Counted from the first letter of the stretch, positions 3,836 to 28,262 are shown. The stretch: DNA of 35,656 nucleotides from an uncultured bacterium (GCA_964449065.1 CAYVAZ010000011.1:1-35656), one strand, 5' to 3'. The notes: generated by a model not told the origin, from the sequence alone. Translations and numbers: made by a program.

Positions 3836-4438
3836 TCATATCCAATCCGGCCCGATGGTTTCCCGGCCTCCTTTGCGTTCCCGGAACCAGCGGGGAACAT
3901 AAGAACCACCTGCCCGAAGAATATCCCCGAAGCTGCGCAATCCATTGGTGGAATCATAAAATTCAAAGTTAATTGGGTGGCTGGGAAAACTGGACGATGG
4001 GGCAAAGGAATCCGTCTGATCGGGACCGATACTCTCCAACAGATACATGTTCTGTACATTGAAAGAAAAAGGATGCCGGGCTGTAATAAACTCATAATAA
4101 GGGTCAGGTGACAAACCGCTTGAAAACGCAAATCCTTCTATATCCAAAGGCACAAAGGGTTCGGCCATCATGCTCTTTAAGTATGGTAACGGTGTTGTTA
4201 GAAAGCGGTAGCCGATGTACCCGTTCCCCGAAGTCGCGCGAATGGGAGGAAACCCTCCATGATCCAATTGATACTGCTCAAACGCAAATGCAATGGTTTT
4301 TAATTCACTCTGCACCCGGGCCACCTGCGCGCGAATTTGCGCGTTTAAAAAGTTGGGGATTGCAATGGCCGCTAGTATGCCAATGACGGCGACTACTATC
4401 AATAATTCGATTAAAGTAAAACCCAATCTTTGTTTCAT
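3836..4438 (-). CDS. Prepilin-type N-methylation domain protein (pilin/pseudopilin, GspG-like)
   Basis: MKQRLG|FTLIELLIVVAVIGILAAIAIPNF. Likely start ATG at 4438. C-terminal SIGPD and STNGLRSFGD. Confidence 0.88.
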   Translation of the reverse strand: MKQRLGFTLIELLIVVAVIGILAAIAIPNFLNAQIRAQVARVQSELKTIAFAFEQYQLDHGGFPPIRATSGNGYIGYRFLTTPLPYLKSMMAEPFVPLDIEGFAFSSGLSPDPYYEFITARHPFSFNVQNMYLLESIGPDQTDSFAPSSSFPSHPINFEFYDSTNGLRSFGDILRAGGSYVPRWFRERKGGRETIGPDWI

Positions 4439-4456
4439 AATAAACCGAATATACAT

Positions 4457-4486
4457 GGGAAAGTCCACCCTTGGGTGGACTTTCCC
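4457..4486. terminator. Perfect hairpin between the DNRLRE-like gene and the pilin gene (terminator or mRNA-stabilising stem)
   Basis: gggaaagtccaccc-tt-gggtggactttccc, a 14-bp perfect inverted repeat 25 nt after the upstream stop. No strong U-tract on the minus strand. Confidence 0.6.
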
Positions 4487-4510: not shown

Positions 4511-5815
4511 TTATTTGTATAATTCAAAGTTCTCTACATCGGATGTAGTGCCACCGGTGAAGGTTGCGGTTATTTTCGGGACAAAATTACCGGTTTCTTT
4601 GGTTCCGATAGCCCCATTGCGGGTCCCCAACGCTTCGATCAACCAGCCGTAATTTTCCAACGTACCGTTTGACCACTTTTCAACAGAACTGGTTACGTCT
4701 ACTTCAACAATACGCGAACCGCCGAAGAGGTCAACTTCACCGACAATGGAGTCGTTCACTTCAATACCGGTTTGGATATCCACACCGTTATCGATAAAGT
4801 TGTTCCAGGTTACTGTGTCTTCATTGAAGAATGTATCCACACCGAATTGTTGGTTGGTGTGTGGAATAATTTCACGAACTTGCGAGTTGGCACCAGCATT
4901 GATGACCGCAACGCGCAATGTCGCGCTGTTGATCGGCGTTCCAGGAGGGATTTGACCAGGTCCGGTACCGAAAATATCGTCAAAACGAATCAAGGCATAG
5001 TTAAAATCAGGCGGCGGGTCTTTTTCGATGTTAGCGATCGGTTCATTACCCAATGGGGTATCAGGAGACGCCGAGCCGCGAATCGCGGCATCTTGCAATC
5101 CGTCATAACCGTTCAAACCTTGTTGGAATGTAAAATTGCCGTTGGGAGTTATGATTTGCAATGTCGGGCCGAGTGTTCCTTCGGTGGAAACAAGCGACAT
5201 AGCATCCACAAAATTTTCATCGGGAATAATCCAAATCCCTTTGTTTTCCAAACCGTTCATATACTGCTGAATCAATGGAGCGATATCGGCGGACCAAACG
5301 TCGCCGTCATCAACACCGGGGGCTTCAACAAACACACTGCCTGGTTCACTAGCAGGAACAAAAAACGGCTGACCGAGAGGGATATCACCACCCATCGAAT
5401 TGTAGGTGGCGGTCAGTACGTCAAAATCCATTAGGTTGTTATAGAGAACAACGAACGTGTTTTCATTGCCATCATCGGAAACAAACATCTCTAGCACAGC
5501 GGATGTCAACTCCGCGTCTGGTGGTATCTGGCCCGGACGGTTTCCAATGATGTCATCGAATTGAATCCAAGCATAGGAAATGCCGTTGTCTGGATCTGCT
5601 AAATCAAACCCGGCAGAAAGTACGGAACTTCCGGCCAAATTGGAGTCTGCGAGTGGAATTTCTTCTCTCACTTCGGCAAACATGGTATCGGTAGTTCCTT
5701 GGTAACCATTTGTACCATTTTGAAAAACAACAGTTGTTTGCGCATGAACATTGAAAGTAAACAATTGAGATGCAAGCGACGCAATAGCACAATACTTGAA
5801 AACAGATTGAAACAC
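4511..5815 (-). CDS. Secreted protein with two DNRLRE/CBM96-like domains
   Basis: Signal peptide ending VHA|Q. Two repeats starting VFQNGTNGYQGTTDT and TFQQGLNGYDGLQDA, each with IxFDDI(I/F)GxxPGQIPP and NxG(I/W). AGGAG RBS before GTG. Confidence 0.75.
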   Translation of the reverse strand: MFQSVFKYCAIASLASQLFTFNVHAQTTVVFQNGTNGYQGTTDTMFAEVREEIPLADSNLAGSSVLSAGFDLADPDNGISYAWIQFDDIIGNRPGQIPPDAELTSAVLEMFVSDDGNENTFVVLYNNLMDFDVLTATYNSMGGDIPLGQPFFVPASEPGSVFVEAPGVDDGDVWSADIAPLIQQYMNGLENKGIWIIPDENFVDAMSLVSTEGTLGPTLQIITPNGNFTFQQGLNGYDGLQDAAIRGSASPDTPLGNEPIANIEKDPPPDFNYALIRFDDIFGTGPGQIPPGTPINSATLRVAVINAGANSQVREIIPHTNQQFGVDTFFNEDTVTWNNFIDNGVDIQTGIEVNDSIVGEVDLFGGSRIVEVDVTSSVEKWSNGTLENYGWLIEALGTRNGAIGTKETGNFVPKITATFTGGTTSDVENFELYK

Positions 5816-6584: not shown

Positions 6585-7148
6585 ATGCGTGGATTTACGT
6601 TAATTGAGCTGTTAATAGTTGTCGCCATTATCGGGATATTGGCAGCGATTGCCGTACCCAATTTTGTCAACGCGCAAGTCAAAGCCAAGATCGCCCGTGT
6701 CGAAGCCGACTTCCAAGCCATTGCCACCGCGCAGGAAATATACCGGTTGGATAACAATTCCTTCACCATGCGAGGGCAAAGCGGTTTCAGAATGCTGCGC
6801 GAGCCGGTGGCATACATGAGCATCGAACCCATTGATCCGTTTACCGATGATGTGGTTGGCGGGGTTAGCTTTGGCGGCAACGTCATGAAAGGCCGGTATC
6901 AATTAGGTGCCGGGAACTCCAATCCGGAGAAATCTTTTGACTACACTCATCACGATATCTATCTTATCGCCAGTAACGGCCCTGACAAAGAAGATGATTC
7001 CCAACCCATTGGTTCCTGGCCGGTTTCACCGGTTACCAGATACATCGCTTTCGAAATTACCAATGGTCTCCACTCCAAAGGTGACCTTTGGCGATACGGC
7101 GGTCCCATCCCCGCGTACTTCAAAGAGCAAGTCCGATACGATTTTTAG
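6585..7148 (+). CDS. Prepilin-type N-methylation domain protein (pilin/pseudopilin, GspG-like)
   Basis: MRG|FTLIELLIVVAIIGILAAIAVPNF, with DPF, SNGPD and ITNGLHSKGD motifs. Paralog of 3836-4438. Confidence 0.9.
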   Translation: MRGFTLIELLIVVAIIGILAAIAVPNFVNAQVKAKIARVEADFQAIATAQEIYRLDNNSFTMRGQSGFRMLREPVAYMSIEPIDPFTDDVVGGVSFGGNVMKGRYQLGAGNSNPEKSFDYTHHDIYLIASNGPDKEDDSQPIGSWPVSPVTRYIAFEITNGLHSKGDLWRYGGPIPAYFKEQVRYDF

Positions 7149-7209
7149 TGATACCATTTTCAAATAGAAACGTTCACTATGAATGACGGAACGGCAAAAC
7201 GTCTTTTAT

Positions 7210-7452
7210 GGTGGTGCAGGCTTCCAGCCAGCCGATGCTATTGTCTCCCCCAAAATGATTGGGGGAGATGTCCAACGTAAGGAGGACAGAGGGGGTGTGA
7301 AGAGAGCCATAATCCGTAAAGTATCAGGTCAGCTGTTTGAAGAGAGATTTCCCCTCCCAAGACTGGGTGGGGTTCGGGGAGGGTTGATTCGATTCTTTGA
7401 GAAAATGCCTTAACCCCCTCCTAACCTTCCCCATTGCATTGGGGGAGGGAAA
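7210..7452. repeat. Cluster of REP-like palindromes
   Basis: ggtggtgcaggcttccagccagcc (7210-7233), tctcccccaaaatgattgggggaga (7244-7268), and an inverted pair at 7349-7385 / 7412-7452. Confidence 0.55.
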
Positions 7453-7542
7453 AGTAAATCAAACCCATTTTTCCATTTCATACCGCTGACCGGTTACCCC
7501 CTGACATTTTCCTTGTGGCTTAACAATAAGATTTTTCTTCGG

Positions 7543-7570
7543 TTGACTTTTAATCGACTAGGGGTAAATT
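7543..7570 (+). promoter_or_regulatory. Putative sigma70 promoter of the riboswitch-pilin transcript
   Basis: TTGACT-16 nt-TAAATT ends 4 nt before the riboswitch P1 stem. Confidence 0.55.
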
Positions 7571-7573
7571 TAA

Positions 7574-7854
7574 TTGAGTGAAAGGTGCGGTTATTTTTCC
7601 ATACGATATAACCGCCAAAAGGGAAGTCCGGTGAAAAACCGGCGCGGTCCCGCCACTGTAACTGGGAACGAAACCTCAAATGCCATTGTCCTTGTTGGAT
7701 GAGAAGGCGAGGGAGTAGGAGCGGTCGGTTAAAGAATTGAGTAAGTGCGGCGTAAAGCCCAGCGCGAGGAAGTGATAAGTCACTACACACTTCAATTCTT
7801 TGATCAAGTACCGTAAAAAATGCCCGGGAGCCAGGAGACCTGCCTTTCAATCAA
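7574..7854 (+). ncRNA. Cobalamin (B12) riboswitch with a long internal insertion
   Basis: AGGT...AAAAGGGAAGTCCGGTGAAAAACCGGCGCGGTCCCGCCACTGTAA core, GCCATTG...GAGAAGGC, and B12-box GAGCCAGGAGACCTGCC. P1 is ttgagtgaaagg / cctttcaatcaa. Confidence 0.93.
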
Positions 7855-7892
7855 TCCAATATCGGCACGCCAACCGAGGAGAAGGCATTGCT

Positions 7893-8606
7893 ATGCGCAA
7901 ATTTTGTTCTTGTACCACCCCGTCGGGCTTTTCACTAATTGAGCTCTTAATCGTCGTTTCGATTATCGGAATCCTAGCAGCCATTGTTTCCGCCAATTAT
8001 ATCTTTTCGATTGAACGCGCCCATGCGGCGGCGTGTCAACAAAATCTTAAGACCATCCATCAATCCCTGCTGTCCTACCGGGTTGACTACGGTCAATTTC
8101 CGCTCGCGGATTGCATGGCCGATACCCAACCGCGCTCCGATGTTACCGCCTGGGGCTGCGGCCCGGCCGCAAACGGCTACTGGTGCGGAGTTCCGCTTAT
8201 TTTAGCCGAACAGGGATACGCTCCGGAAAACGCGTTGTTTTGCCCCGCGTTAAAACATCAGCATAAACATTCGATTGAAGCCTATTCCGGATGCGGCGGT
8301 TCTTCATTTGCCGGTAAAGATGTCCCCGGCTGGCGATTCTTTCGCTATGCCTATAATAGCGCGGCGGCGGATACAGGCGGCTACGACGGCGGGCAGCATA
8401 ACATCGAAGACGATTGGGCGCCGGATGTTTGGCTGGCCCGCTGCGCCCATGTAGATGTCGGTGAGTTTTTCCCCGACCGTGATTTTACGTTTCCGCACCG
8501 GTTTGATATTGAAGATGAGGGTGAAGTCACAGCGTGGTATGGTGAGTTTGATTTATCCATTCATGGATCGATTCGGCAACGGTCGGTGCAATTGAAGAAA
8601 TTTTGA
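7893..8606 (+). CDS. Prepilin-type (type II secretion/type IV pilin-like) protein under B12 riboswitch control
   Basis: GAGGAG RBS then ATG at 7893. SG|FSLIELLIVVSIIGILAAI, ACQQNLKTI...YRVDYGQFP, LFCP. 237 aa, Cys/His-rich. Confidence 0.88.
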   Translation: MRKFCSCTTPSGFSLIELLIVVSIIGILAAIVSANYIFSIERAHAAACQQNLKTIHQSLLSYRVDYGQFPLADCMADTQPRSDVTAWGCGPAANGYWCGVPLILAEQGYAPENALFCPALKHQHKHSIEAYSGCGGSSFAGKDVPGWRFFRYAYNSAAADTGGYDGGQHNIEDDWAPDVWLARCAHVDVGEFFPDRDFTFPHRFDIEDEGEVTAWYGEFDLSIHGSIRQRSVQLKKF

Positions 8607-8626: not shown

Positions 8627-9547
8627 CTACCGTGAGCGTTGGGTGTAGGCCATCCGGGGGCCGTGCGGGCCGCCGTCTTTTTTCTCTTCATGGCCTTCTT
8701 TCTCTTCTTTCTTTTTGAGAGAGGATTCAAGAGTATCGACAATGCCTTCAAGAAATTCAATCATCTTATGAATGGCTTGCAGTTCCGAGCGTTTTTTTTC
8801 CAATTGCGATTTGAGTTCATCGAGTGCGTCGCCCACAATTTTCAGTTTTTCATTGCTGGTGATATCGGGAACCGAGATGCGGGTGCTGCGCAAAATATTA
8901 TAGGCTTTTTTGATGGCCGTGATCGTGGAAATTTTTGCCCGCGCTTTGATATCGCCAAAGTTTTCACGGATAAATTTTTGCGCATTGTTCGCGAAAGAGT
9001 CACCCAGGTCAACTTCTTTAGAATAAACAGAGTGTTGGCATTTCATTTGCACCAATGAGGTTTGAAAGTATTCCGTCATGACGGTTTTGGTGGCGGATTC
9101 GGAGGGTTTGACATCCGACTTCATCATTTTCGCGAGTTTCTTTTTTGCTTCGACCAAGTCGATTACGTAGGTGTGGCTTTGCTCTTCCTTGCGCTGCAAA
9201 AAGTGAATGGTCTCGCTTTTTTCCATATCCCCAAAGGAGGTATAAGGGGCTTCGTAAAGCCAATCGACATATTGGCGGGAGGTACTGATGGATTCCAAAC
9301 TGGCGGCATAGCGAAGATCGCCGCCGCGCGCGAGTTCTTTTAACAAGCGTTTTTCGGAAGGAGAACGGACCGGTGCACGCAGAGAAATATCCTTAAAGAC
9401 ATCCTTAATCTGCTCGCACACCATGCGACCGTTGACATATTTTACAACCACTTCCGCACGGCGTGTGCCGGGATTGTCTTTTAAAAACTGCGTTATGATC
9501 TCTTCTTTAAATTCTTCTGCCGCTTGGGCATAGTCATCCATTGCCAT
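8627..9547 (-). CDS. Hypothetical coiled-coil protein
   Basis: 306-aa ORF with a charged helical C-terminal half, ending RMAYTQRSR. Confidence 0.7.
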   Translation of the reverse strand: MAMDDYAQAAEEFKEEIITQFLKDNPGTRRAEVVVKYVNGRMVCEQIKDVFKDISLRAPVRSPSEKRLLKELARGGDLRYAASLESISTSRQYVDWLYEAPYTSFGDMEKSETIHFLQRKEEQSHTYVIDLVEAKKKLAKMMKSDVKPSESATKTVMTEYFQTSLVQMKCQHSVYSKEVDLGDSFANNAQKFIRENFGDIKARAKISTITAIKKAYNILRSTRISVPDITSNEKLKIVGDALDELKSQLEKKRSELQAIHKMIEFLEGIVDTLESSLKKKEEKEGHEEKKDGGPHGPRMAYTQRSR

Positions 9548-9698: not shown

Positions 9699-11141
9699 TT
9701 ATAATTCCGGCTCTAAATTTTTCTCAGGCGGCCGCGATGAGACGGTAGATCGTAACAACCCATACCCATTCTGGATGGAACGGTAGAGTTCTACGGATGT
9801 CTTCCAGCCGGTAGCTTTGCGCCACAAATAAGAGGGACGTAGATGGAATTCACGAATGGCTTGATTGCGCAATTCTTTTACTCTCTCACTGCTGATTGTT
9901 CCTATATCCATCTGAGGAAATGGAGTTGAATTATCCACACTATCAATATCTTTCGGCGTCCAGCCTTCGCGGATGGCTTCCTGGCGAAGATCGGTCCCCA
10001 TGCGCGGGGCCGCTACGTTGAACGAAACAAAATCCGGATCCAGTTCTTTGGCATATTCGATAGAAGCACGTGCGGTTTTTTCGGTTTCTCCCGGCAGGCC
10101 GAGAATAAAGTGGGCAAGAGTACGAATACCAAGACGGCGGCACAGGGCGAAAATTTCTTTCACACGGGCAGGCTCGATTCCTTTTTCGATGGAATTGAGA
10201 ATATCCTGATCGACAGATTCCACACCGAATTGAATGGTGTGGCAGCCGGCGCGCGCCATGAGGGTTAACATCTCCTCGTCCATCACATCCACCCGGGAGA
10301 GGGTTACCCAATCAAAGTTTAATCCTTCGCTGATAAGACGGTGTAAAAATTCACGGCTGTGCTGCTTGTTTACACCAAACGTCAAGTCTTTGATCCACAA
10401 TTCTTTGATGCCGGCATCGCGCAGGTAGCGCAGTTCCTGCATGGCGTTATCGATATCGCGCAGTTTATGCGCCCATTTGCCGTTGAAGCAAAAACTGCAA
10501 GTGTAGGGGCATCCAAAATCTGTTAAAAACGACGCGAAGTGCTTTTGGCGGCCATGCGGGATTCGGTATTTGTGCATCGGGATAAGATCGTAACGTGGGA
10601 TTGGAAATGAGTAATATCGTTTGCCGGGATCGATTCCTTTCAAAAACTCATCATCTTTCTTAAAGAGAAAGTTGGGAATCGGTTCTTTTGAAAGGGATGA
10701 AGCGGTGGTTTGATCCCACGATTGTAAAAAAGAATCTACTGCTTCAGCCGTAAAATCAAGTAACACGCCGGAGAGCCAGGGATGTTTGTTCATCAGTTCC
10801 CTACCTTTGCTGACCATGACATCACCGGTGCCGATAATGGGGACGGATTTAGGTAGATTCAGTTGCTCAATAAAGGCTAAATCTTGGTTGTATGAAACTC
10901 CGCCTGTGAGAAACAGCATGGCATCCGGCTCAAAGGCGCGGATGCGTTCTTCGGCTTCACCCCATGACATCATGTACAAATTGGCATCGAGATATTCGAC
11001 TTCATGGTTGCGCGATAGAATCCCGCTTTGCACAACCAGGTCATACGGGTGCCAATAATAGTTAGACTTTGCCGTGTGGCTGCAATAATAGTCGCGCAAA
11101 TACGGCTTATCGCCGGGTGGATTTAACAGTAAGACTCTCAT
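9699..11141 (-). CDS. B12-binding domain radical SAM protein
   Basis: VLLLNPP N-terminus, GCPYTCSFC (CxxxCxxC), GVES, FILGLPGET. Confidence 0.9.
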   Translation of the reverse strand: MRVLLLNPPGDKPYLRDYYCSHTAKSNYYWHPYDLVVQSGILSRNHEVEYLDANLYMMSWGEAEERIRAFEPDAMLFLTGGVSYNQDLAFIEQLNLPKSVPIIGTGDVMVSKGRELMNKHPWLSGVLLDFTAEAVDSFLQSWDQTTASSLSKEPIPNFLFKKDDEFLKGIDPGKRYYSFPIPRYDLIPMHKYRIPHGRQKHFASFLTDFGCPYTCSFCFNGKWAHKLRDIDNAMQELRYLRDAGIKELWIKDLTFGVNKQHSREFLHRLISEGLNFDWVTLSRVDVMDEEMLTLMARAGCHTIQFGVESVDQDILNSIEKGIEPARVKEIFALCRRLGIRTLAHFILGLPGETEKTARASIEYAKELDPDFVSFNVAAPRMGTDLRQEAIREGWTPKDIDSVDNSTPFPQMDIGTISSERVKELRNQAIREFHLRPSYLWRKATGWKTSVELYRSIQNGYGLLRSTVSSRPPEKNLEPEL

Positions 11142-13770: not shown

Positions 13771-15225
13771 TCACCTCAGACTCACCAAATCGTGGAGTTG
13801 CCGCAATCCATAAATCATATAGTTGCTTAGCTGCCGGGGCGAACGGGCTTTCGCTAGCGTTTTTAAAATATACCCCGGACGCAGATAAAACGCCCGCAAG
13901 GCTTCCGAACGCATGGTAGACAGTTCTTCCAAGGTGAGGTATTTTGTGGGGATTGCCGGCCCGTTGTAGGCGGATTCAGGCAACACCCCTTCTTTCAAGA
14001 GACCCTCTTCAACCGCAATGCGGTAGAAATCCGTCCCGTAGAATGGATAACTGTAGAAGTATTCGATAAAGTCGGGATTGAGTTTGACGGCGAATTGTTT
14101 GGTGCGTTCAAAACTTTCGCGGCTTTCCCACGGCAGCCCTATCAACATATAAACACTGCTTTTTACGCCAACTTTTCTACATAACTCGATGGCCGGTTGA
14201 ATCTTTTCGAAATCCACCAACTTCTTCATTTTTTCCAGCATCTCTGGATCACCGCTTTCGACACCGAATGAAATCAGCCAGCAGCCCGCTTTTTTCATCT
14301 CTATCAGCATGTCTTCCCGCAGGGTATCGACCCGGCTGTTGCAAGACCAGTTGATATCCAGCCCTTGTTTTTGAATCAGTTTGCAGAGGTCGATCACCCA
14401 GCGTTTGTTGGCGGTGAATAAATCCGAACGGAAAAGAAAACTTTTGATGCCGTGTTTTTCCACGCATTCTCTGATCTCACCCACCACGTTTTCTGGGGAA
14501 CGGACACGGACTTTGCTTCCGGAAACCGCGGGGGCCAAGCAAAACACGCAAGGAAAGGGGCAGCCGCGGCTGGTGACGATGGTGGCTTGTAATTCACCGG
14601 TATCTTGGCGAAAGTAGGGTGTGTTGTCAATCAAGTGCCGGGCGGGAAAGGGGATGTGATCGATATCTTGAATAAAGCCGCGCTCGGGATTTTGTTTGGG
14701 TTCGCCGTTTTGGCGGAAGGTGATGCCGTTGATTTCTTCAAACGCTTTGCCTTGGGAAAGTTCGCGGATGGTGTCTTCATACTCCCCGCGCATGATGACA
14801 TCCAGCGAGGGATATTCGGCAATGGACTGAAGGTCAAGTTTGATGAAGTGAGCGCCTTTTGTGACGGTGATGATGTTGGGATTAATTTCTTTCGCGATTT
14901 TAGCGGCCTGCATGTCATCGGTCAGAGTAGGGGTCGTGATGGAAATGATGACGGCATCCGGTTGGAATGTCTTTAAGTCTTCACGGAAATTGCCCCAATT
15001 CATGTTATGCGCGGGATAGTCTTTGACCATGCATTCAACACCGTCTTGCTCGAGACTTGCTGCCATGTAGAGTAAGTCCATCGGTGGACGCAGCGCGACC
15101 GTGTGGAGATTTTTGATCGGTGTTTGGCAGCGCTCTTCGCGGATATATTTACCCGTCGGCGGGACGATCAGATAGACTTTTTTCCAAGCTGGGTTCGACA
15201 ACTTCATACTCCTTTTTGCCTTCAA
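13771..15225 (-). CDS. B12-binding domain radical SAM protein (HpnJ/BchE-like superfamily)
   Basis: SRGCPFPCVFC, WSCNSRVD, GVESG, IGLPWES. Start uncertain (TTG 15225 or ATG 15207). Confidence 0.9.
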   Translation of the reverse strand: MKAKRSMKLSNPAWKKVYLIVPPTGKYIREERCQTPIKNLHTVALRPPMDLLYMAASLEQDGVECMVKDYPAHNMNWGNFREDLKTFQPDAVIISITTPTLTDDMQAAKIAKEINPNIITVTKGAHFIKLDLQSIAEYPSLDVIMRGEYEDTIRELSQGKAFEEINGITFRQNGEPKQNPERGFIQDIDHIPFPARHLIDNTPYFRQDTGELQATIVTSRGCPFPCVFCLAPAVSGSKVRVRSPENVVGEIRECVEKHGIKSFLFRSDLFTANKRWVIDLCKLIQKQGLDINWSCNSRVDTLREDMLIEMKKAGCWLISFGVESGDPEMLEKMKKLVDFEKIQPAIELCRKVGVKSSVYMLIGLPWESRESFERTKQFAVKLNPDFIEYFYSYPFYGTDFYRIAVEEGLLKEGVLPESAYNGPAIPTKYLTLEELSTMRSEALRAFYLRPGYILKTLAKARSPRQLSNYMIYGLRQLHDLVSLR

Positions 15226-24406: not shown

Positions 24407-24480
24407 AGGCGTGTGGCTCAATTGGCTAGAGCAGCTGACTCCAAATCAGCAGGTTGGGGGTTCGAGTCCCTCCACGCCTG
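24407..24480 (+). tRNA. tRNA-Trp (anticodon CCA), 3' CCA not encoded
   Basis: Acceptor stem aggcgtg/cacgcct, anticodon arm gctga-ctCCAaa-tcagc, T-arm ggggg-ttcgagt-ccctc. Confidence 0.96.
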
Positions 24481-24503
24481 GTTCATTTTACTGGACTTAC
24501 GGT

Positions 24504-25637
24504 TCATGCGTCTACGCGCATAGACGCATCGTGCAATGATCGTGCAATTTTCCGCCGGGCGCCTCCCTTCACCATCCGCAGCCCCGGTAGCAATACCGAA
24601 TCCTCCGGACCATCCCATTCCCGAATCGACGACTCGATATGTCCAACGACTTTTTCACGGAACAACGGAAGCAGCAGCTTCCCCTGATCACCGCAGTAAT
24701 GACGCTCACCGATGGTCTGCGGGGAATGGCCGACGTAACGCTGCACATAATAGCTATACCACCCTTCTTCGATGGCAGCTGTTTGGATGGTGTTGCGAAG
24801 ATCCTTCGGACAGATTTCCACTTTCGGGTTCCACCTTCGCATCTGACGCACGATGGATTGCGAATAGGAAGTAAACTCAGCGTAGTCCGGAATGACATAA
24901 TCGGAATGGCGGTTGTCCCTGCGCCGCTGCCGCAGCAGCCAATGCACAATACCGGCAACCGGAATCTTGCGGATGCGGAACCGGTTCTTCACTTCTCCTT
25001 CAATGACGATGGTGCCGTTTTCCACATCCACTTTATCCCAGGTCAAGCGGAAGGCTTCCTGCAATTGCAGCCCCGCCAGTCCCTGCAAGGCCACTCCCAC
25101 CGTCAAACGATCACGCACCGGATCGCGGGACAGCCAATCGAGAAAATCCAATATCCGGTTAACCGGCAGATAAGGATTTCCCGATTCCTCATCATAGCGT
25201 CCGGACTGGCAGCTGAATTTTTTCAAACGGATGGACTTGCAAAAATCCACATACTCGCGGGGCCAGTTCGCCGCCATCCACGCCGAGGTGCGGCGGACCG
25301 GCAACAGATACAAGCGCACCGTATCAAACGCATAGTTTTTCTGTTCCAACACTTTTTGATACGCTTGCACATGCTCCAAACGCAGTTCATCCCAATAGTG
25401 CAATTCTTGTTTGTCTACCCAGTCCAAAAAATAATCGCAATACAAGGTATCCTTCAAACGGGTATAGTCCGACCAATTTCGGGACTTGGAGGCACGGTAC
25501 AGGGACTCACTGATGCGGATTCTTGGAGTGGATGATCCGGCTTCGCTCTCTCCATTCTCTTTGTGAGCAGCACTTCCTGGAGAGGACAGGATTTTTAAAA
25601 AGGTGTCGGGGTGGAAGTTGGGAAAAACTATTCCATT
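24504..25637 (-). pseudogene. Tyrosine recombinase/integrase, probably 5'-truncated
   Basis: GLQLQEA..LTWDKVD, VKN, KDLRNT, YVGH, RHY. The frame stays open to about 25637 with no start codon upstream of TTG 25457. Points toward the tRNA 3' end. Confidence 0.75.
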
Positions 25638-26970
25638 TCAAATCCCTGATTGGTAAATTTCAATGTGCGTCCATTTTCAGTGACAATACGCACAATGTTT
25701 TCCGGTGCGCCATTGGGGATATCGGCTTTAATCTCAAGCGTAACATTCACGGATGAGCCTACTAAACCGACAAGATGAGTCATCACCTCTTCGGCAATTT
25801 TTCCTGCATCTCTTCCAACCCGTTCCGGATCAAGAGTAACAGTTCCATGATACCGCTTTGGCTTCGCAGGTTCTGAAGGAGTCGGTTTACCGGAATCAAA
25901 CGGTTTATTGGTTGAATCAGTTGTTGTTGCTTCGGTCGTATCCGTTGGTGTAGGAGTATCTTGCTGCGTCTCTTTGTTTAGTTGATTTAAAGCCACTTCA
26001 GGACGTACCAGTAATCCAGTAAAACTTTTGTCCAATGTTACGTTTTCACAAACACGAAGCCCCCGGTATCTTTCCGTCGCTTCATCAAAACTTTCTGCGT
26101 AGGCAAATGAGTCTTGTTCCCATGTGAGTATATCGAGTCCATCACGCAACGCATCCAAAAGAACACCGGAATGTTTCAACCGGGGTAGGTAAAGATAGCG
26201 GGCAAAATCTTCAACGATTTGCTTGATTTCAACATGATTGCCTCTCCATAATGGAATGCGGTCCACTTCCATTCTTAGCCTTGTGCAAGCAAGTTTCGTT
26301 ATTAGTTGTTCTTCATTGATCAGTTTTTTACTGGCTCGCACCGCTAATGCATCTTGACCGGATAATCGAAAACCTTGCCATTTTATTTTATCCTGCGGTT
26401 TCTCTTGTACTGGAGCCAGCATTCATTGGTAGGCTTCCGGTAAGCGCGCAGTTACAACTCCATCAGCTGCTTTTCTCTGTGTCTCGGCTTGTTTTACTTG
26501 GTGGGGTGATAGGTCTAGTTCTTCTTGTTCATTCAGAATGGATTCCCATGCAAGATAACGTCTTACCGCTTCATCCAAATCCTGTAGTCGCATTTTATCT
26601 ATTGCCAAAAATACCAGCGAATTTCGGTAAAGTCGGGGTGTGTTTCCACGTGATTCAAAAATGGCTTTGGCGGCTTGTTCTGCCGGGTTGCCTTGTTCTT
26701 TGCTATAAGGGCAATCGATCCCCAACACAACCAAACGGGCGTCCAAATCATCCGGAACCTCTGATCCAGAATTGGGTAGTGGATGAATTCGGTTGAAATC
26801 TCCGATCTTTGTCACATCATCACGAATGCGAAGCTCTACCTCTTTTGCAACAGCGTCCGGGTCACGTTTTAACTGCTCTGCCCGGTCTTCCGCCATTTTT
26901 GTGACGGTTGGCTGGGTGGAATACCAGTAATGAGCGGCATCATGATAAAGATAGGTTGCCGCACTTCTTA
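25628..26970 (-). pseudogene. C-terminal remnant of a DUF499-type AAA ATPase, with an in-frame TGA and 5' end lost at the IS
   Basis: AATYLY...YWYSTQPTVTKMAEDRA, PRLYRNSLVFLA, FARYLYLPRL, KRYHGTVTLDPERVGRDA, VTENGRTLKF...FE. The two ORFs are in frame and split by TGA at 26423-26425. Confidence 0.8.
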
Positions 26971-28262
26971 ATACTCGTCCATAAATAAATTGAACAAATA
27001 AATTACCCATGCTATAATATCGGTATGGATAGAGAATTGGAAAATACTATACGCGAAAAATTTGTAGTGCTCAAGCCAATATTGGATGAACAAGCGCGAC
27101 GACTGTGGGCGGCCACGGAAGCGAAATCCTTGGGTCGTGGCGGAATTTCCATAGTGTCCCGAGCCACGGGGATTTCGCGTACAACCATTCACGAAGGGAT
27201 CAATCACTTGGCTGCGAATGAATCTCCTTCTCCTCAAAAGGGTGGACGGATTCGCCGTGCGGGTGGAGGTCGTAAACCGATTACGGAATACGATCCAACT
27301 GTATTGGCGGACCTGGAGCGGCTTGTAGAACCGGTCACACGCGGAGATCCAGAGTCCCCGTTGCGCTGGACCTGCAAGAGTGTACGCCAACTGTCGGCGG
27401 CTCTACAAGAGCGGGGACATGTGATCGGACGCCAAAAAACTGCACATCTTCTTTCGGAATTGGGGTACAGTTTGCAAGCGAATCGCAAGACCAAAGAAGG
27501 GAAACAACACCCGGACCGAGACGCTCAATTTCACTTCATTAGTGAACGTGTGACTCAGTTTCAGCGTCGCAAGCAACCGGTAATTTCTGTAGACACAAAG
27601 AAGAAGGAACTGGTGGGGGACTTTAAGAACACGGGGCGGGAATGGCGCCCAGAAGGAAATCCCGAACCCGTCCGCGTGCATGATTTCATGGATAAACAAA
27701 AGGGGAAAGCCAATCCCTATGGCGTCTATGATCCGATAGCCAATCAAGGCTGGGTGAGTGTAGGGACGGATTATGATACCGCAGAATTCGCAGTCGAGAG
27801 TATTCGCCGCTGGTGGAAGAAGATGGGGACAGACTTGTATCCAAACGCCAAAGAACTTTTAATCACAGCCGATTGCGGCGGCAGCAATGGGAACCGTATT
27901 CGGTTGTGGAAAGTGGCTTTGCAACAGTTCTCCAATGACACAGGATTGACGATAACGGTCAGCCATTTTCCGCCTGGGACCAGCAAATGGAATAAGATTG
28001 AACATCGGATGTTTTCTCACATTAGCATGAACTGGAGAGGAAAACTTCTAATCAGTCATGAAGTGATTGTGAATCTTATCGGGAATACGACAACCAAAAA
28101 CGGCTTGAAAATCCAGTCCGAAATTGACACCAATCAATACAAAAAAGGGATTAAAATTACAGACGAAGAACTGAATAACATCAATTTAATTAAAGACGAT
28201 TTTCATGGTGAATGGAACTATTCCATCGCCCAGAATTGTTTATGTTAATTATGGACAACTCC
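26971..28262 (+). mobile_element. ISAzo13-family insertion sequence
   Basis: Imperfect ~29-bp terminal IRs (atactcgtccataaataaattgaacaaat vs reverse complement ggagttgtccataattaacataaacaatt). TTA flanks both ends. Confidence 0.85.
27025..28248 (+). CDS. ISAzo13-family DDE transposase
   Basis: RIRRAGGGRK, GDPESPLRWT, HPDRDAQF, ISVDTKKKELVG, ADCGGSNG, PPGTSKWNKIEHRMFS, FHGEWNY. Confidence 0.95.
   Translation: MDRELENTIREKFVVLKPILDEQARRLWAATEAKSLGRGGISIVSRATGISRTTIHEGINHLAANESPSPQKGGRIRRAGGGRKPITEYDPTVLADLERLVEPVTRGDPESPLRWTCKSVRQLSAALQERGHVIGRQKTAHLLSELGYSLQANRKTKEGKQHPDRDAQFHFISERVTQFQRRKQPVISVDTKKKELVGDFKNTGREWRPEGNPEPVRVHDFMDKQKGKANPYGVYDPIANQGWVSVGTDYDTAEFAVESIRRWWKKMGTDLYPNAKELLITADCGGSNGNRIRLWKVALQQFSNDTGLTITVSHFPPGTSKWNKIEHRMFSHISMNWRGKLLISHEVIVNLIGNTTTKNGLKIQSEIDTNQYKKGIKITDEELNNINLIKDDFHGEWNYSIAQNCLC

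Follow-up and report, generated by a model that had tools for sequence, protein, structure and literature searches.

Why would a cobalamin riboswitch control the gene of a type IV pilin-like protein? To our knowledge, import of vitamin B12 across the outer membrane proceeds almost only via BtuB/TonB, and in uptake of the E. coli type BtuB-TonB and BtuFCD are placed under a cobalamin riboswitch. A preliminary description of the DNA analyzed here, a 35,656-nt stretch from an uncultured bacterium (hereafter the window), had pointed out a riboswitch in front of a standalone prepilin gene and proposed that the pilin binds or imports corrinoid or cobalt. The window is the entire contig C11 of G000, an 87% complete genome of 5.2 Mb in 515 contigs. 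We studied this locus and its relatives, mainly in 35 genomes of the same phylum, which may be Ca. Hinthialibacterota. The accessible part of a published account of that phylum mentions cobalamin ABC transport and Tad pili, and nothing resembling the prepilin gene (PMC9324843).

A complete cobalamin riboswitch precedes a single prepilin gene

Searching Rfam with cmscan returned RF00174 at positions 7566-7861 (plus strand) over the whole model (1-189), with 106.6 bits against a gathering score of 31.5 and an E value of 6e-26, which bore out the complete B12 riboswitch of the preliminary description. Within the aptamer, cmscan placed an insert of ~100 nt (~7727-7825, plus strand), in which a long stem closes two hairpins. 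This insertion folds by itself (−32.9 kcal/mol, z −2.8), 3 of 200 shuffled sequences folding equally well. It is missing from a sister riboswitch on another contig of the same genome (G000:C10:34864-35069), to which the C11 riboswitch is closely similar, sequence past P1 included. The insertion looks like a three-way junction, and a 36-nt portion of it resembles a stretch on G000:C132.

The promoter and the ribosome-binding site that had been described both called for qualification. The candidate sigma-70 promoter at 7543-7570 (plus strand; TTGACT-16-TAAATT) agrees with the consensus at 9 of 12 positions and, taken alone, is not above chance, 3 sites being found against 1.6 ± 1.3 in shuffled sequences; yet TTGAC recurs in the corresponding region ahead of 12 of 21 orthologous riboswitches, as counted by eye, and ahead of both other cobalamin riboswitches of G000. 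As to the ribosome-binding site, GAGGAG (7876-7881) is embedded in GCC-AACCGAGGAGAA-GGC (7869-7886, plus strand), and most orthologous leaders of the same order have a GCC...GAGGAGAA-GGC-like element after P1, at any distance from the start codon. Since it is kept in relatives whose start codon lies ~100 nt further downstream, we read the element as probably the P13 kissing-loop hairpin of the riboswitch, with GAGGAG in its loop doubling here as a likely ribosome site. The kissing-loop role is that known from class I cobalamin riboswitches. The P13 hairpin was not returned when the leader was folded in isolation.

The prepilin-like gene occupies 7893-8606 on the plus strand (ATG at 7893, stop at 8606). 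The next ORF (8627-9547, minus strand, 306 aa, no Pfam family above cut-off) is convergent and bounds the unit without belonging to it, so that the pilin is, as described, the only target of the riboswitch at C11. Upstream of the riboswitch and outside its control lies a neighbor prepilin of a large local family with an NGL-x-S-x-GD C-terminal motif (6585-7148, plus strand); between it and the promoter, and also outside the system, is a dispersed MITE- or REP-like repeat (7181-7497) with dozens of partial copies of about 70-94% identity across G000. The window holds a further prepilin at 3836-4468 (minus strand). Two genes for B12-binding radical SAM proteins, at 9699-11141 and 13771-15225 (minus strand), are situated less than 7 kb away, on the opposite strand and outside the riboswitch unit. 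Farther along (24407-27010 and 27025-28248) lies a probable integrated element, with a tRNA ahead of an integrase-like ORF and an ISAzo13-type transposase.

The protein is pilin-like and matches no named subfamily tested

The 237-aa product, P0001, consists of a 12-aa leader, a G|F-x-x-x-E site, a helix (residues 15-66) and a 170-aa head. N_methyl (PF07963) was its sole Pfam match and TIGR02532 scored above cut-off; the G|F-x-x-x-E site with its hydrophobic helix is characteristic of a class III signal peptide. F13 and E17 (F1 and E5 of the mature protein) are invariant in 115 of 115 aligned sequences. From residue 62 on, 14 positions are invariant (Y62, P70, D73, A76, P91, G95, W97, P118, R151, A153, Y154, W180, P201, and E218), and C117 and C184 nearly so. 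An AlphaFold2 model built on 115 sequences (pLDDT 94.7) predicted the same helix, a loop-rich head and a C-terminal three-strand sheet. Its top three structural matches were type IV pilins or pseudopilins, with modest Z scores (6.0, 5.8, and 5.3; rmsd 3.1-3.3), and Foldseek gave no match at E ≤ 0.001. No known B12-binding fold (BtuF, BtuG, BtuH, transcobalamin) was among the matches of the whole model, as part of which the head was searched. The named major pilins GspG, PilA, and ComGC matched only the N-terminal 30-70 residues, all below their equivalog cut-offs. PF07596 (DUF1559) did not match P0001, and 11 of the 120 homologues listed carry it as a precomputed label. Judged by its sequence, P0001 is a type IV pilin-like protein outside all named subfamilies tested.

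The family is small and discrete: a search of 1.84 billion representatives gave 22 clusters at E ≤ 1e-30. The few homologues with a source name were labeled "bacterium", Ca. Omnitrophota, Ca. Poribacteria, or Ca. Sumerlaeota. Of the prepilin-motif ORFs of G000, which number at least 117, 101 belong to one family, and P0001 and one paralog (on C31) are in their own. The 101-member family bears an NGL-x-S-x-GD-like C-terminal motif.

The preliminary description had stressed a head rich in Cys, His, and aromatic residues and had considered cobalt as a ligand. The peptides it quoted (HQHKH, RCAHVD) are present in P0001, and by Cys+His content its head comes 2nd among 116 prepilin-motif proteins of G000, but by aromatic content only 29th. 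Moreover, of the 42 closest sequences, 1 retains H122, 21 retain H124, and 13 retain H126 of the HQHKH motif, and 5 retain C98. This lack of conservation removed the basis for a His/Cys cobalt-binding site, which we rejected. C89 was found in 42/42 closest sequences vs 0/73 distant members, and the distant subgroup without C89 includes riboswitch-linked copies.

The riboswitch-pilin link is conserved

A full-length alignment search of the contigs matched generic pilin N-termini and no family members (five of the genomes it covered later served as probes of other phyla), and family counts were taken from a head-only profile search. It returned 44 copies in 34 of the 35 phylum genomes. Orthologs do carry the riboswitch, a check that the preliminary description had proposed: 24 copies in 23 genomes stand directly behind a cobalamin riboswitch and 9 others lie within 4 kb, on the same strand, in riboswitch-led operons, which makes 30 of the 34 genomes in all, although these genomes are kin and not independent. 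The remaining 11 copies comprise 3 at contig ends (G006, G017, and G025) and 8 of a separate paralogous type treated below. G003 and G025 also have, at a contig end, a riboswitch with an N-terminal pilin fragment ~160-200 nt downstream of it.

In metagenomes, a riboswitch was found upstream in 21 of 39 family loci, several of which repeat identical organisms. In most of the 18 negatives the upstream DNA is short; three (L170, L176, and L189) have 1.4-3.9 kb of it and gave no match. As a control, we read the TPP riboswitches of the phylum, which precede ThiC-like genes (judged by eye) and a pilin in 0/23 loci (25 loci examined, 2 too short downstream). Direct and operon layouts alternate on the tree, with 8 changes, 2 of them forced by starred branches. 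From this genomic evidence, membership of the pilin in the B12 regulon of the phylum is close to certain.

The regulon contains a B12 importer, salvage genes, and secreted partners

The term "standalone" proved right for the C11 locus only. In relatives, the pilin shares operons with genes for two secreted proteins, with btuF/C/D, and with genes for salvage (cbiB, cobD-like, cobO, cobQ, cobU, cobT, cobS, and cobC, several of them assigned by sequence similarity). Three genomes (G004, G011, and G016) have the arrangement cbiB, riboswitch, pilin, propeller-like gene, cobO, cobQ, and btuF/C. The operon on G000:C10 is of this type (cbiB/propeller/cobO/cobQ/btuF/C) minus the pilin. Because that operon lacks the pilin and its riboswitch closely resembles the one on C11, the simplest reading would be that the pilin left a C10-type operon and kept its own riboswitch.

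Under the control of the two other riboswitches of G000 are the genes for BtuFCD and salvage and those for two secreted proteins, one propeller-like and one with a predicted transcobalamin beta fold. The model of the latter, a 288-aa tandem protein behind the third riboswitch (G000:C387), matched the beta domains of transcobalamin, haptocorrin, and intrinsic factor and the DUF4430-type structure 3U7Z with Z scores of 13.5-14.0, the next match scoring 7.6; rmsd was 1.6-2.1 over 96-101 residues, and Foldseek also found such matches. These fold matches, at 13-16% identity, are those of the bacterial secreted partner and not of the pilin. The propeller-like partner occurs in 33/35 genomes, with 31 of 50 matches within 4 kb behind a riboswitch; it is BNR-like by weak Pfam and Atlas matches, the Atlas matches of the partner families being all <0.9 and hence leads only. 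A complex prediction of the pilin head (38-237) with the propeller-like protein of G000:C10 scored 0.08 (mark 0.32). In distant loci, a LIC_13355-like secreted gene, whose product may resemble BtuH, stands between riboswitch and pilin. Profiles of the three partner families gave no useful sequence match to solved structures, Btu proteins included for the propeller-like and LIC_13355-like families.

By eye, the partners have signal-peptide-like N-termini and a common short C-terminal tail. A tail of this kind (S-x-V-x-x-W/F-x-L/M-Y/F-like) is seen on many secreted proteins of the lineage, for instance on products of partner genes in L034-L070 and, in the window, on a DNRLRE/CBM96 protein encoded directly upstream of a pilin (4511-5815, minus strand), and it may be a sorting or secretion signal.

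We also read the genes downstream of all 23 riboswitches that have neither pilin nor propeller within 4 kb. Their targets are btuF/D/C, the gene of the transcobalamin-fold protein, nrdDG, a methyltransferase gene, and genes of unnamed secreted proteins; some have no clear target, and no beta-barrel receptor was recognized behind them. Some loci deserve separate mention. At L041:16149-16892 (G020:C45), two back-to-back cobalamin riboswitches head divergent units, with pilin and salvage genes one way and transcobalamin-fold and propeller genes the other. L235 (G009:C6) has a cobalamin riboswitch before nrdD/nrdG, the known pattern of a B12-independent isozyme. In the distant metagenome loci L171 and L177, larB, joined in L177 by larC, follows the riboswitch-linked pilin; both are nickel-pincer cofactor genes.

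The phylum needs B12 and shows no riboswitch-linked receptor

Signs of a diderm envelope were found in the window (LPS kinase and heptosyltransferase) and elsewhere in G000 (TonB-dependent receptors and TonB). G000 encodes MetH and NrdJ, and among ring-synthesis genes CbiC was not found in G000 and CbiD in 0/35 phylum genomes, which indicates that B12 uptake is needed. When we looked for the E. coli-type importer, as the preliminary description had advised, its two parts fared differently. BtuFCD is present behind a riboswitch, in the G000:C10 operon and in relatives, but TonB-receptor matches within 10 kb behind a riboswitch numbered 0/65 in 23 phylum genomes, against 5 in 4 of 6 outgroup genomes. 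Over the 35 phylum genomes, which are incomplete, none of the 77 cobalamin riboswitches found had a TonB-dependent receptor behind it. The TIGR01779 BtuB cut-off is a weak test here, since the riboswitch-linked outgroup receptors fall short of it too. G000 has 6 TonB-dependent receptors (831-1056 aa) and 3 TonB matches, and one of these receptors could import B12 without a riboswitch, or with a riboswitch lost at a contig break.

Machinery for filaments is encoded in G000, with 7 secretin matches, 11 matches to T2SS/T4P assembly or retraction ATPases, a prepilin peptidase, and T2SS-like clusters. Filament assembly genes adjoin none of the family copies examined.

A paralogous clade lies under a predicted NikR operator

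The 8 paralogous copies form one clade (99/98), nested in the riboswitch-linked set, and have no riboswitch directly upstream. The pilin is at the head of their clusters and is followed by propeller, ExbB-like, DUF2149, and CobN-like genes. At the promoter, a 27-bp inverted repeat is present in 8/8 copies (G000:C31:12099-12125 in L070 and L225; likewise in L041 and L064-L069). It matches closely or exactly the delta-proteobacterial NikR signal, given as GTGTTAC-N13/14-GTAACAC in the accessible part of the source (PMC545781). NikR_C is found in 33/35 genomes. With a matrix made from the other seven sites, the G000:C31 site ranked 2nd in its genome and the window promoter scored near zero; the 1st site precedes two genes without known nickel link and the 3rd a DUF4198 gene. 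On these motif matches, the paralog lies under a predicted NikR operator, and the pilin-propeller-ExbB-DUF2149-CobN-like cluster is a candidate nickel-tetrapyrrole salvage system.

In G000, a second NikR-type site lies at the start of the propeller gene, and nikR adjoins a propeller-like gene on the opposite strand at G029:C5, G033:C208, and G034:C53. A Fur-type box upstream of the CobN-type copies was also considered and rejected, the best reaching only 14/19 of the consensus.

Other pilins are found behind cobalamin riboswitches

G026, the sole phylum genome without the P0001 family, has one riboswitch, and ~290 nt downstream of it stands a prepilin of the large local family (L246:4203-4763, on G026:C1115), a single case in a fragmentary genome with 7% contamination. 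In Armatimonadota, taking the best match per genome, the 30 riboswitch loci have a pilin first in 18, a pilin second in 1, and a BtuB-like receptor first in 3; 16 of the 28 loci above the Rfam cut-off open with a pilin. Two planctomycete genomes have a pilin directly behind the riboswitch in 1/1 and 3/7 loci, and a Lentisphaeria genome has one behind a sub-threshold riboswitch match. In a Kiritimatiellia genome, 3 of the 4 riboswitch loci were read and none had a pilin. These probe genomes came from a pilin-motif scan, which favors pilin-rich organisms.

The riboswitch pilins of these other phyla have heads of the H-X9-DG type, and no significant profile alignment with the P0001 head was obtained (probability 2.8%). 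The H-X9-DG motif is absent from P0001; the H-X9-DG model missed clear carriers too, and the order of motifs is similar by eye, so a remote kinship of P0001 to these prepilins may exist.

Discussion

The question was what a pilin does under a B12 riboswitch. We propose that a type IV filament takes up corrinoids in place of BtuB and that the pilin is the subunit that gives this route its specificity, a reading to which we assign a probability of roughly 45%. That the pilin has some role in corrinoid acquisition, whether in this import route, as an export adaptor or as an anchored binder, seems highly probable. The riboswitch, the gene, their conserved link, the content of the regulon, the predicted folds, and the machinery present in G000 could fit together as follows. 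When B12 is scarce, the riboswitches would be on, as we infer the direction of regulation, and the secreted capture proteins, that is, the tandem transcobalamin-beta-fold protein and the propeller-like protein, would be made. The pilin, produced alongside BtuFCD and the salvage enzymes, would be matured by prepilin peptidase and built as a minor subunit into a T2SS pseudopilus or type IV pilus by the general machinery. Its head would then carry corrinoid, or a loaded capture protein, through the secretin to BtuF. When B12 is plentiful, binding to the aptamer would close the P13 element and turn expression off.

Several observations favor the filament import route: the link is conserved in 30 of 34 family-holding genomes despite changing gene orders; the phylum has no riboswitch-linked TonB receptor, vs 5 in the outgroup; a different prepilin stands behind the riboswitch of G026, and pilins outnumber BtuB-like receptors 18 to 3 in first place at the Armatimonadota loci; and the NikR-type paralog heads a CobN-like cluster, at the usual place of the TonB receptor. 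It is weakened by the six TonB-dependent receptors of G000, one of which could import B12, by the lack of adjacent assembly genes, and by the head, for which searches with the whole model returned no known B12-binding fold. Besides, a pilin fold does not imply a filament, because a published uptake pilin worked without PilD, PilT, and PilQ, according to the accessible part of that report (PMC13170364).

The pilin might instead join a T2SS pseudopilus only for the export or display of B12-capture partners, the vitamin entering via another, unregulated pore. The propeller-like gene accompanies the family in its riboswitch, NikR-type, and distant metagenome versions, the partners have signal-peptide-like N-termini and a common tail, and T2SS-like clusters are present, all in keeping with such an adaptor. 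We nevertheless consider it unlikely, for it leaves entry through the outer membrane unexplained, with no riboswitch-linked receptor in 35 genomes, and the place right behind the riboswitch is taken in Armatimonadota by either a pilin or a BtuB-like receptor. Doubtful, too, is a membrane-anchored periplasmic binder, with the helix as inner-membrane anchor and the head passing corrinoid to BtuF/BtuCD without a filament. Its precedent is the piliation-independent uptake role of a pilin, as given in the part of PMC13170364 that we could access; the pilin gene often adjoins btuF or btuC/btuD (G001, G022, G024, and G028), and no copy examined has assembly genes beside it. However, mature F1 and E5 are invariant in 115/115 sequences, which fits processing and assembly, the regulon already includes BtuF, and the outer-membrane step is again unexplained.

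Adhesion is a common role of minor pilins, and a starvation-induced adhesin might attach the cell to B12-producing neighbors or particles in a lineage that shows no ring synthesis. We find this quite improbable, as conservation of the head is strong, with 14 positions invariant from residue 62 onward, and the gene is mostly single-copy, in contrast to the 101-member variable family, and as the pairing with a CobN-like cluster would be unexplained. A cobalt-ion binder could draw on the high Cys+His rank of the head and on the paralog, which is under a NikR-type operator beside a chelatase-like gene; but apart from its unconserved histidines and C98, a lineage in which no ring-synthesis genes were found would have little use for B12-repressed cobalt import, and the cysteines of an exported protein are more likely disulfides, which makes this ligand very improbable. 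Lastly, with at least 117 prepilin-motif ORFs in G000, a pilin might by chance neighbor a riboswitch left by rearrangement in a single genome and be unrelated to B12. Such a passenger is hardly credible when the same family follows the riboswitch in 30 genomes across the class and in 21/39 metagenome loci, and when none of 23 TPP riboswitch loci in these genomes has a pilin downstream.

How does the proposed filament import route compare with known systems? With BtuB-TonB/BtuFCD it has in common the riboswitch family, homologues of BtuF, BtuC, and BtuD, and salvage genes; here, however, a pilin and secreted proteins are behind the riboswitches, and a TonB-dependent receptor at none of 77. Regarding the paralog, we take the genes of hmuYRSTUV to match the domains of its cluster. 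As far as the accessible parts of the sources go, the CobN-like, MotA/ExbB, and DUF2149 genes are shared with the hmuYRSTUV/BtuS tetrapyrrole-salvage clusters, which have a hemophore and a TonB-dependent receptor where the paralog cluster, with its NikR-like operator, has a pilin and a propeller-like gene (PMC12583661, PMC6460266). The Bacteroides BtuG/BtuH/BtuJ loci, likewise from partial sources, also co-regulate exported capture proteins with the importer, and a propeller-like partner is found here too, but they are centered on BtuB, and the propeller-like and LIC_13355-like partners have no sequence match to solved Btu proteins (PMC6143338, PMC10404256, bioRxiv 10.1101/2025.07.01.662609). 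Legionella PilA2 (PMC13170364) and Synechocystis PilA1 (cited therein) are type IV pilins tied to nutrient uptake; as described in the part accessible to us, they are major pilins, concerned with iron, and neither is a dedicated riboswitch-controlled pilin for an organic cofactor. The DUF1559/H-X9-DG prepilins of Planctomycetota, Armatimonadota, and Lentisphaeria resemble P0001 in N-terminal helix and size and have a subfamily behind cobalamin riboswitches, but P0001 is without the H...DGH motif and its head gives no significant profile alignment with theirs (probability 2.8%). We found no literature report of a riboswitch-controlled pilin, although regulon tables in supplements could already list such genes. 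The riboswitch itself is a known element, and the whole system matches no described B12 importer that we found in the literature.

Another route across the outer membrane is implied by a whole diderm phylum in which B12 is needed, ring synthesis is not seen, and a pilin takes the regulatory slot of the receptor. In terms of gene arrangement, the conserved riboswitch-pilin link, without a switch-controlled outer-membrane importer, points to an undescribed pilin-based B12 uptake. Large pilin-like families would thereby gain a named ligand, an inducing switch, and a cheap assay, and with the NikR-controlled paralog the idea would take in another metal tetrapyrrole as well. B12 riboswitches are followed by at least three types of head, those of the P0001 family, of the H-X9-DG subfamily, and of a single pilin from the large local family. 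More speculatively, and in our view with rather less than even odds, expanded pilin families may be interchangeable specificity subunits of a filament-and-secretin importer that does the work of TonB receptors, one paralog having been re-wired to NikR beside a CobN-like dechelatase candidate for nickel tetrapyrroles such as coenzyme F430. If so, the remaining ~100 pilins of each genome would serve as receptors for other nutrients.
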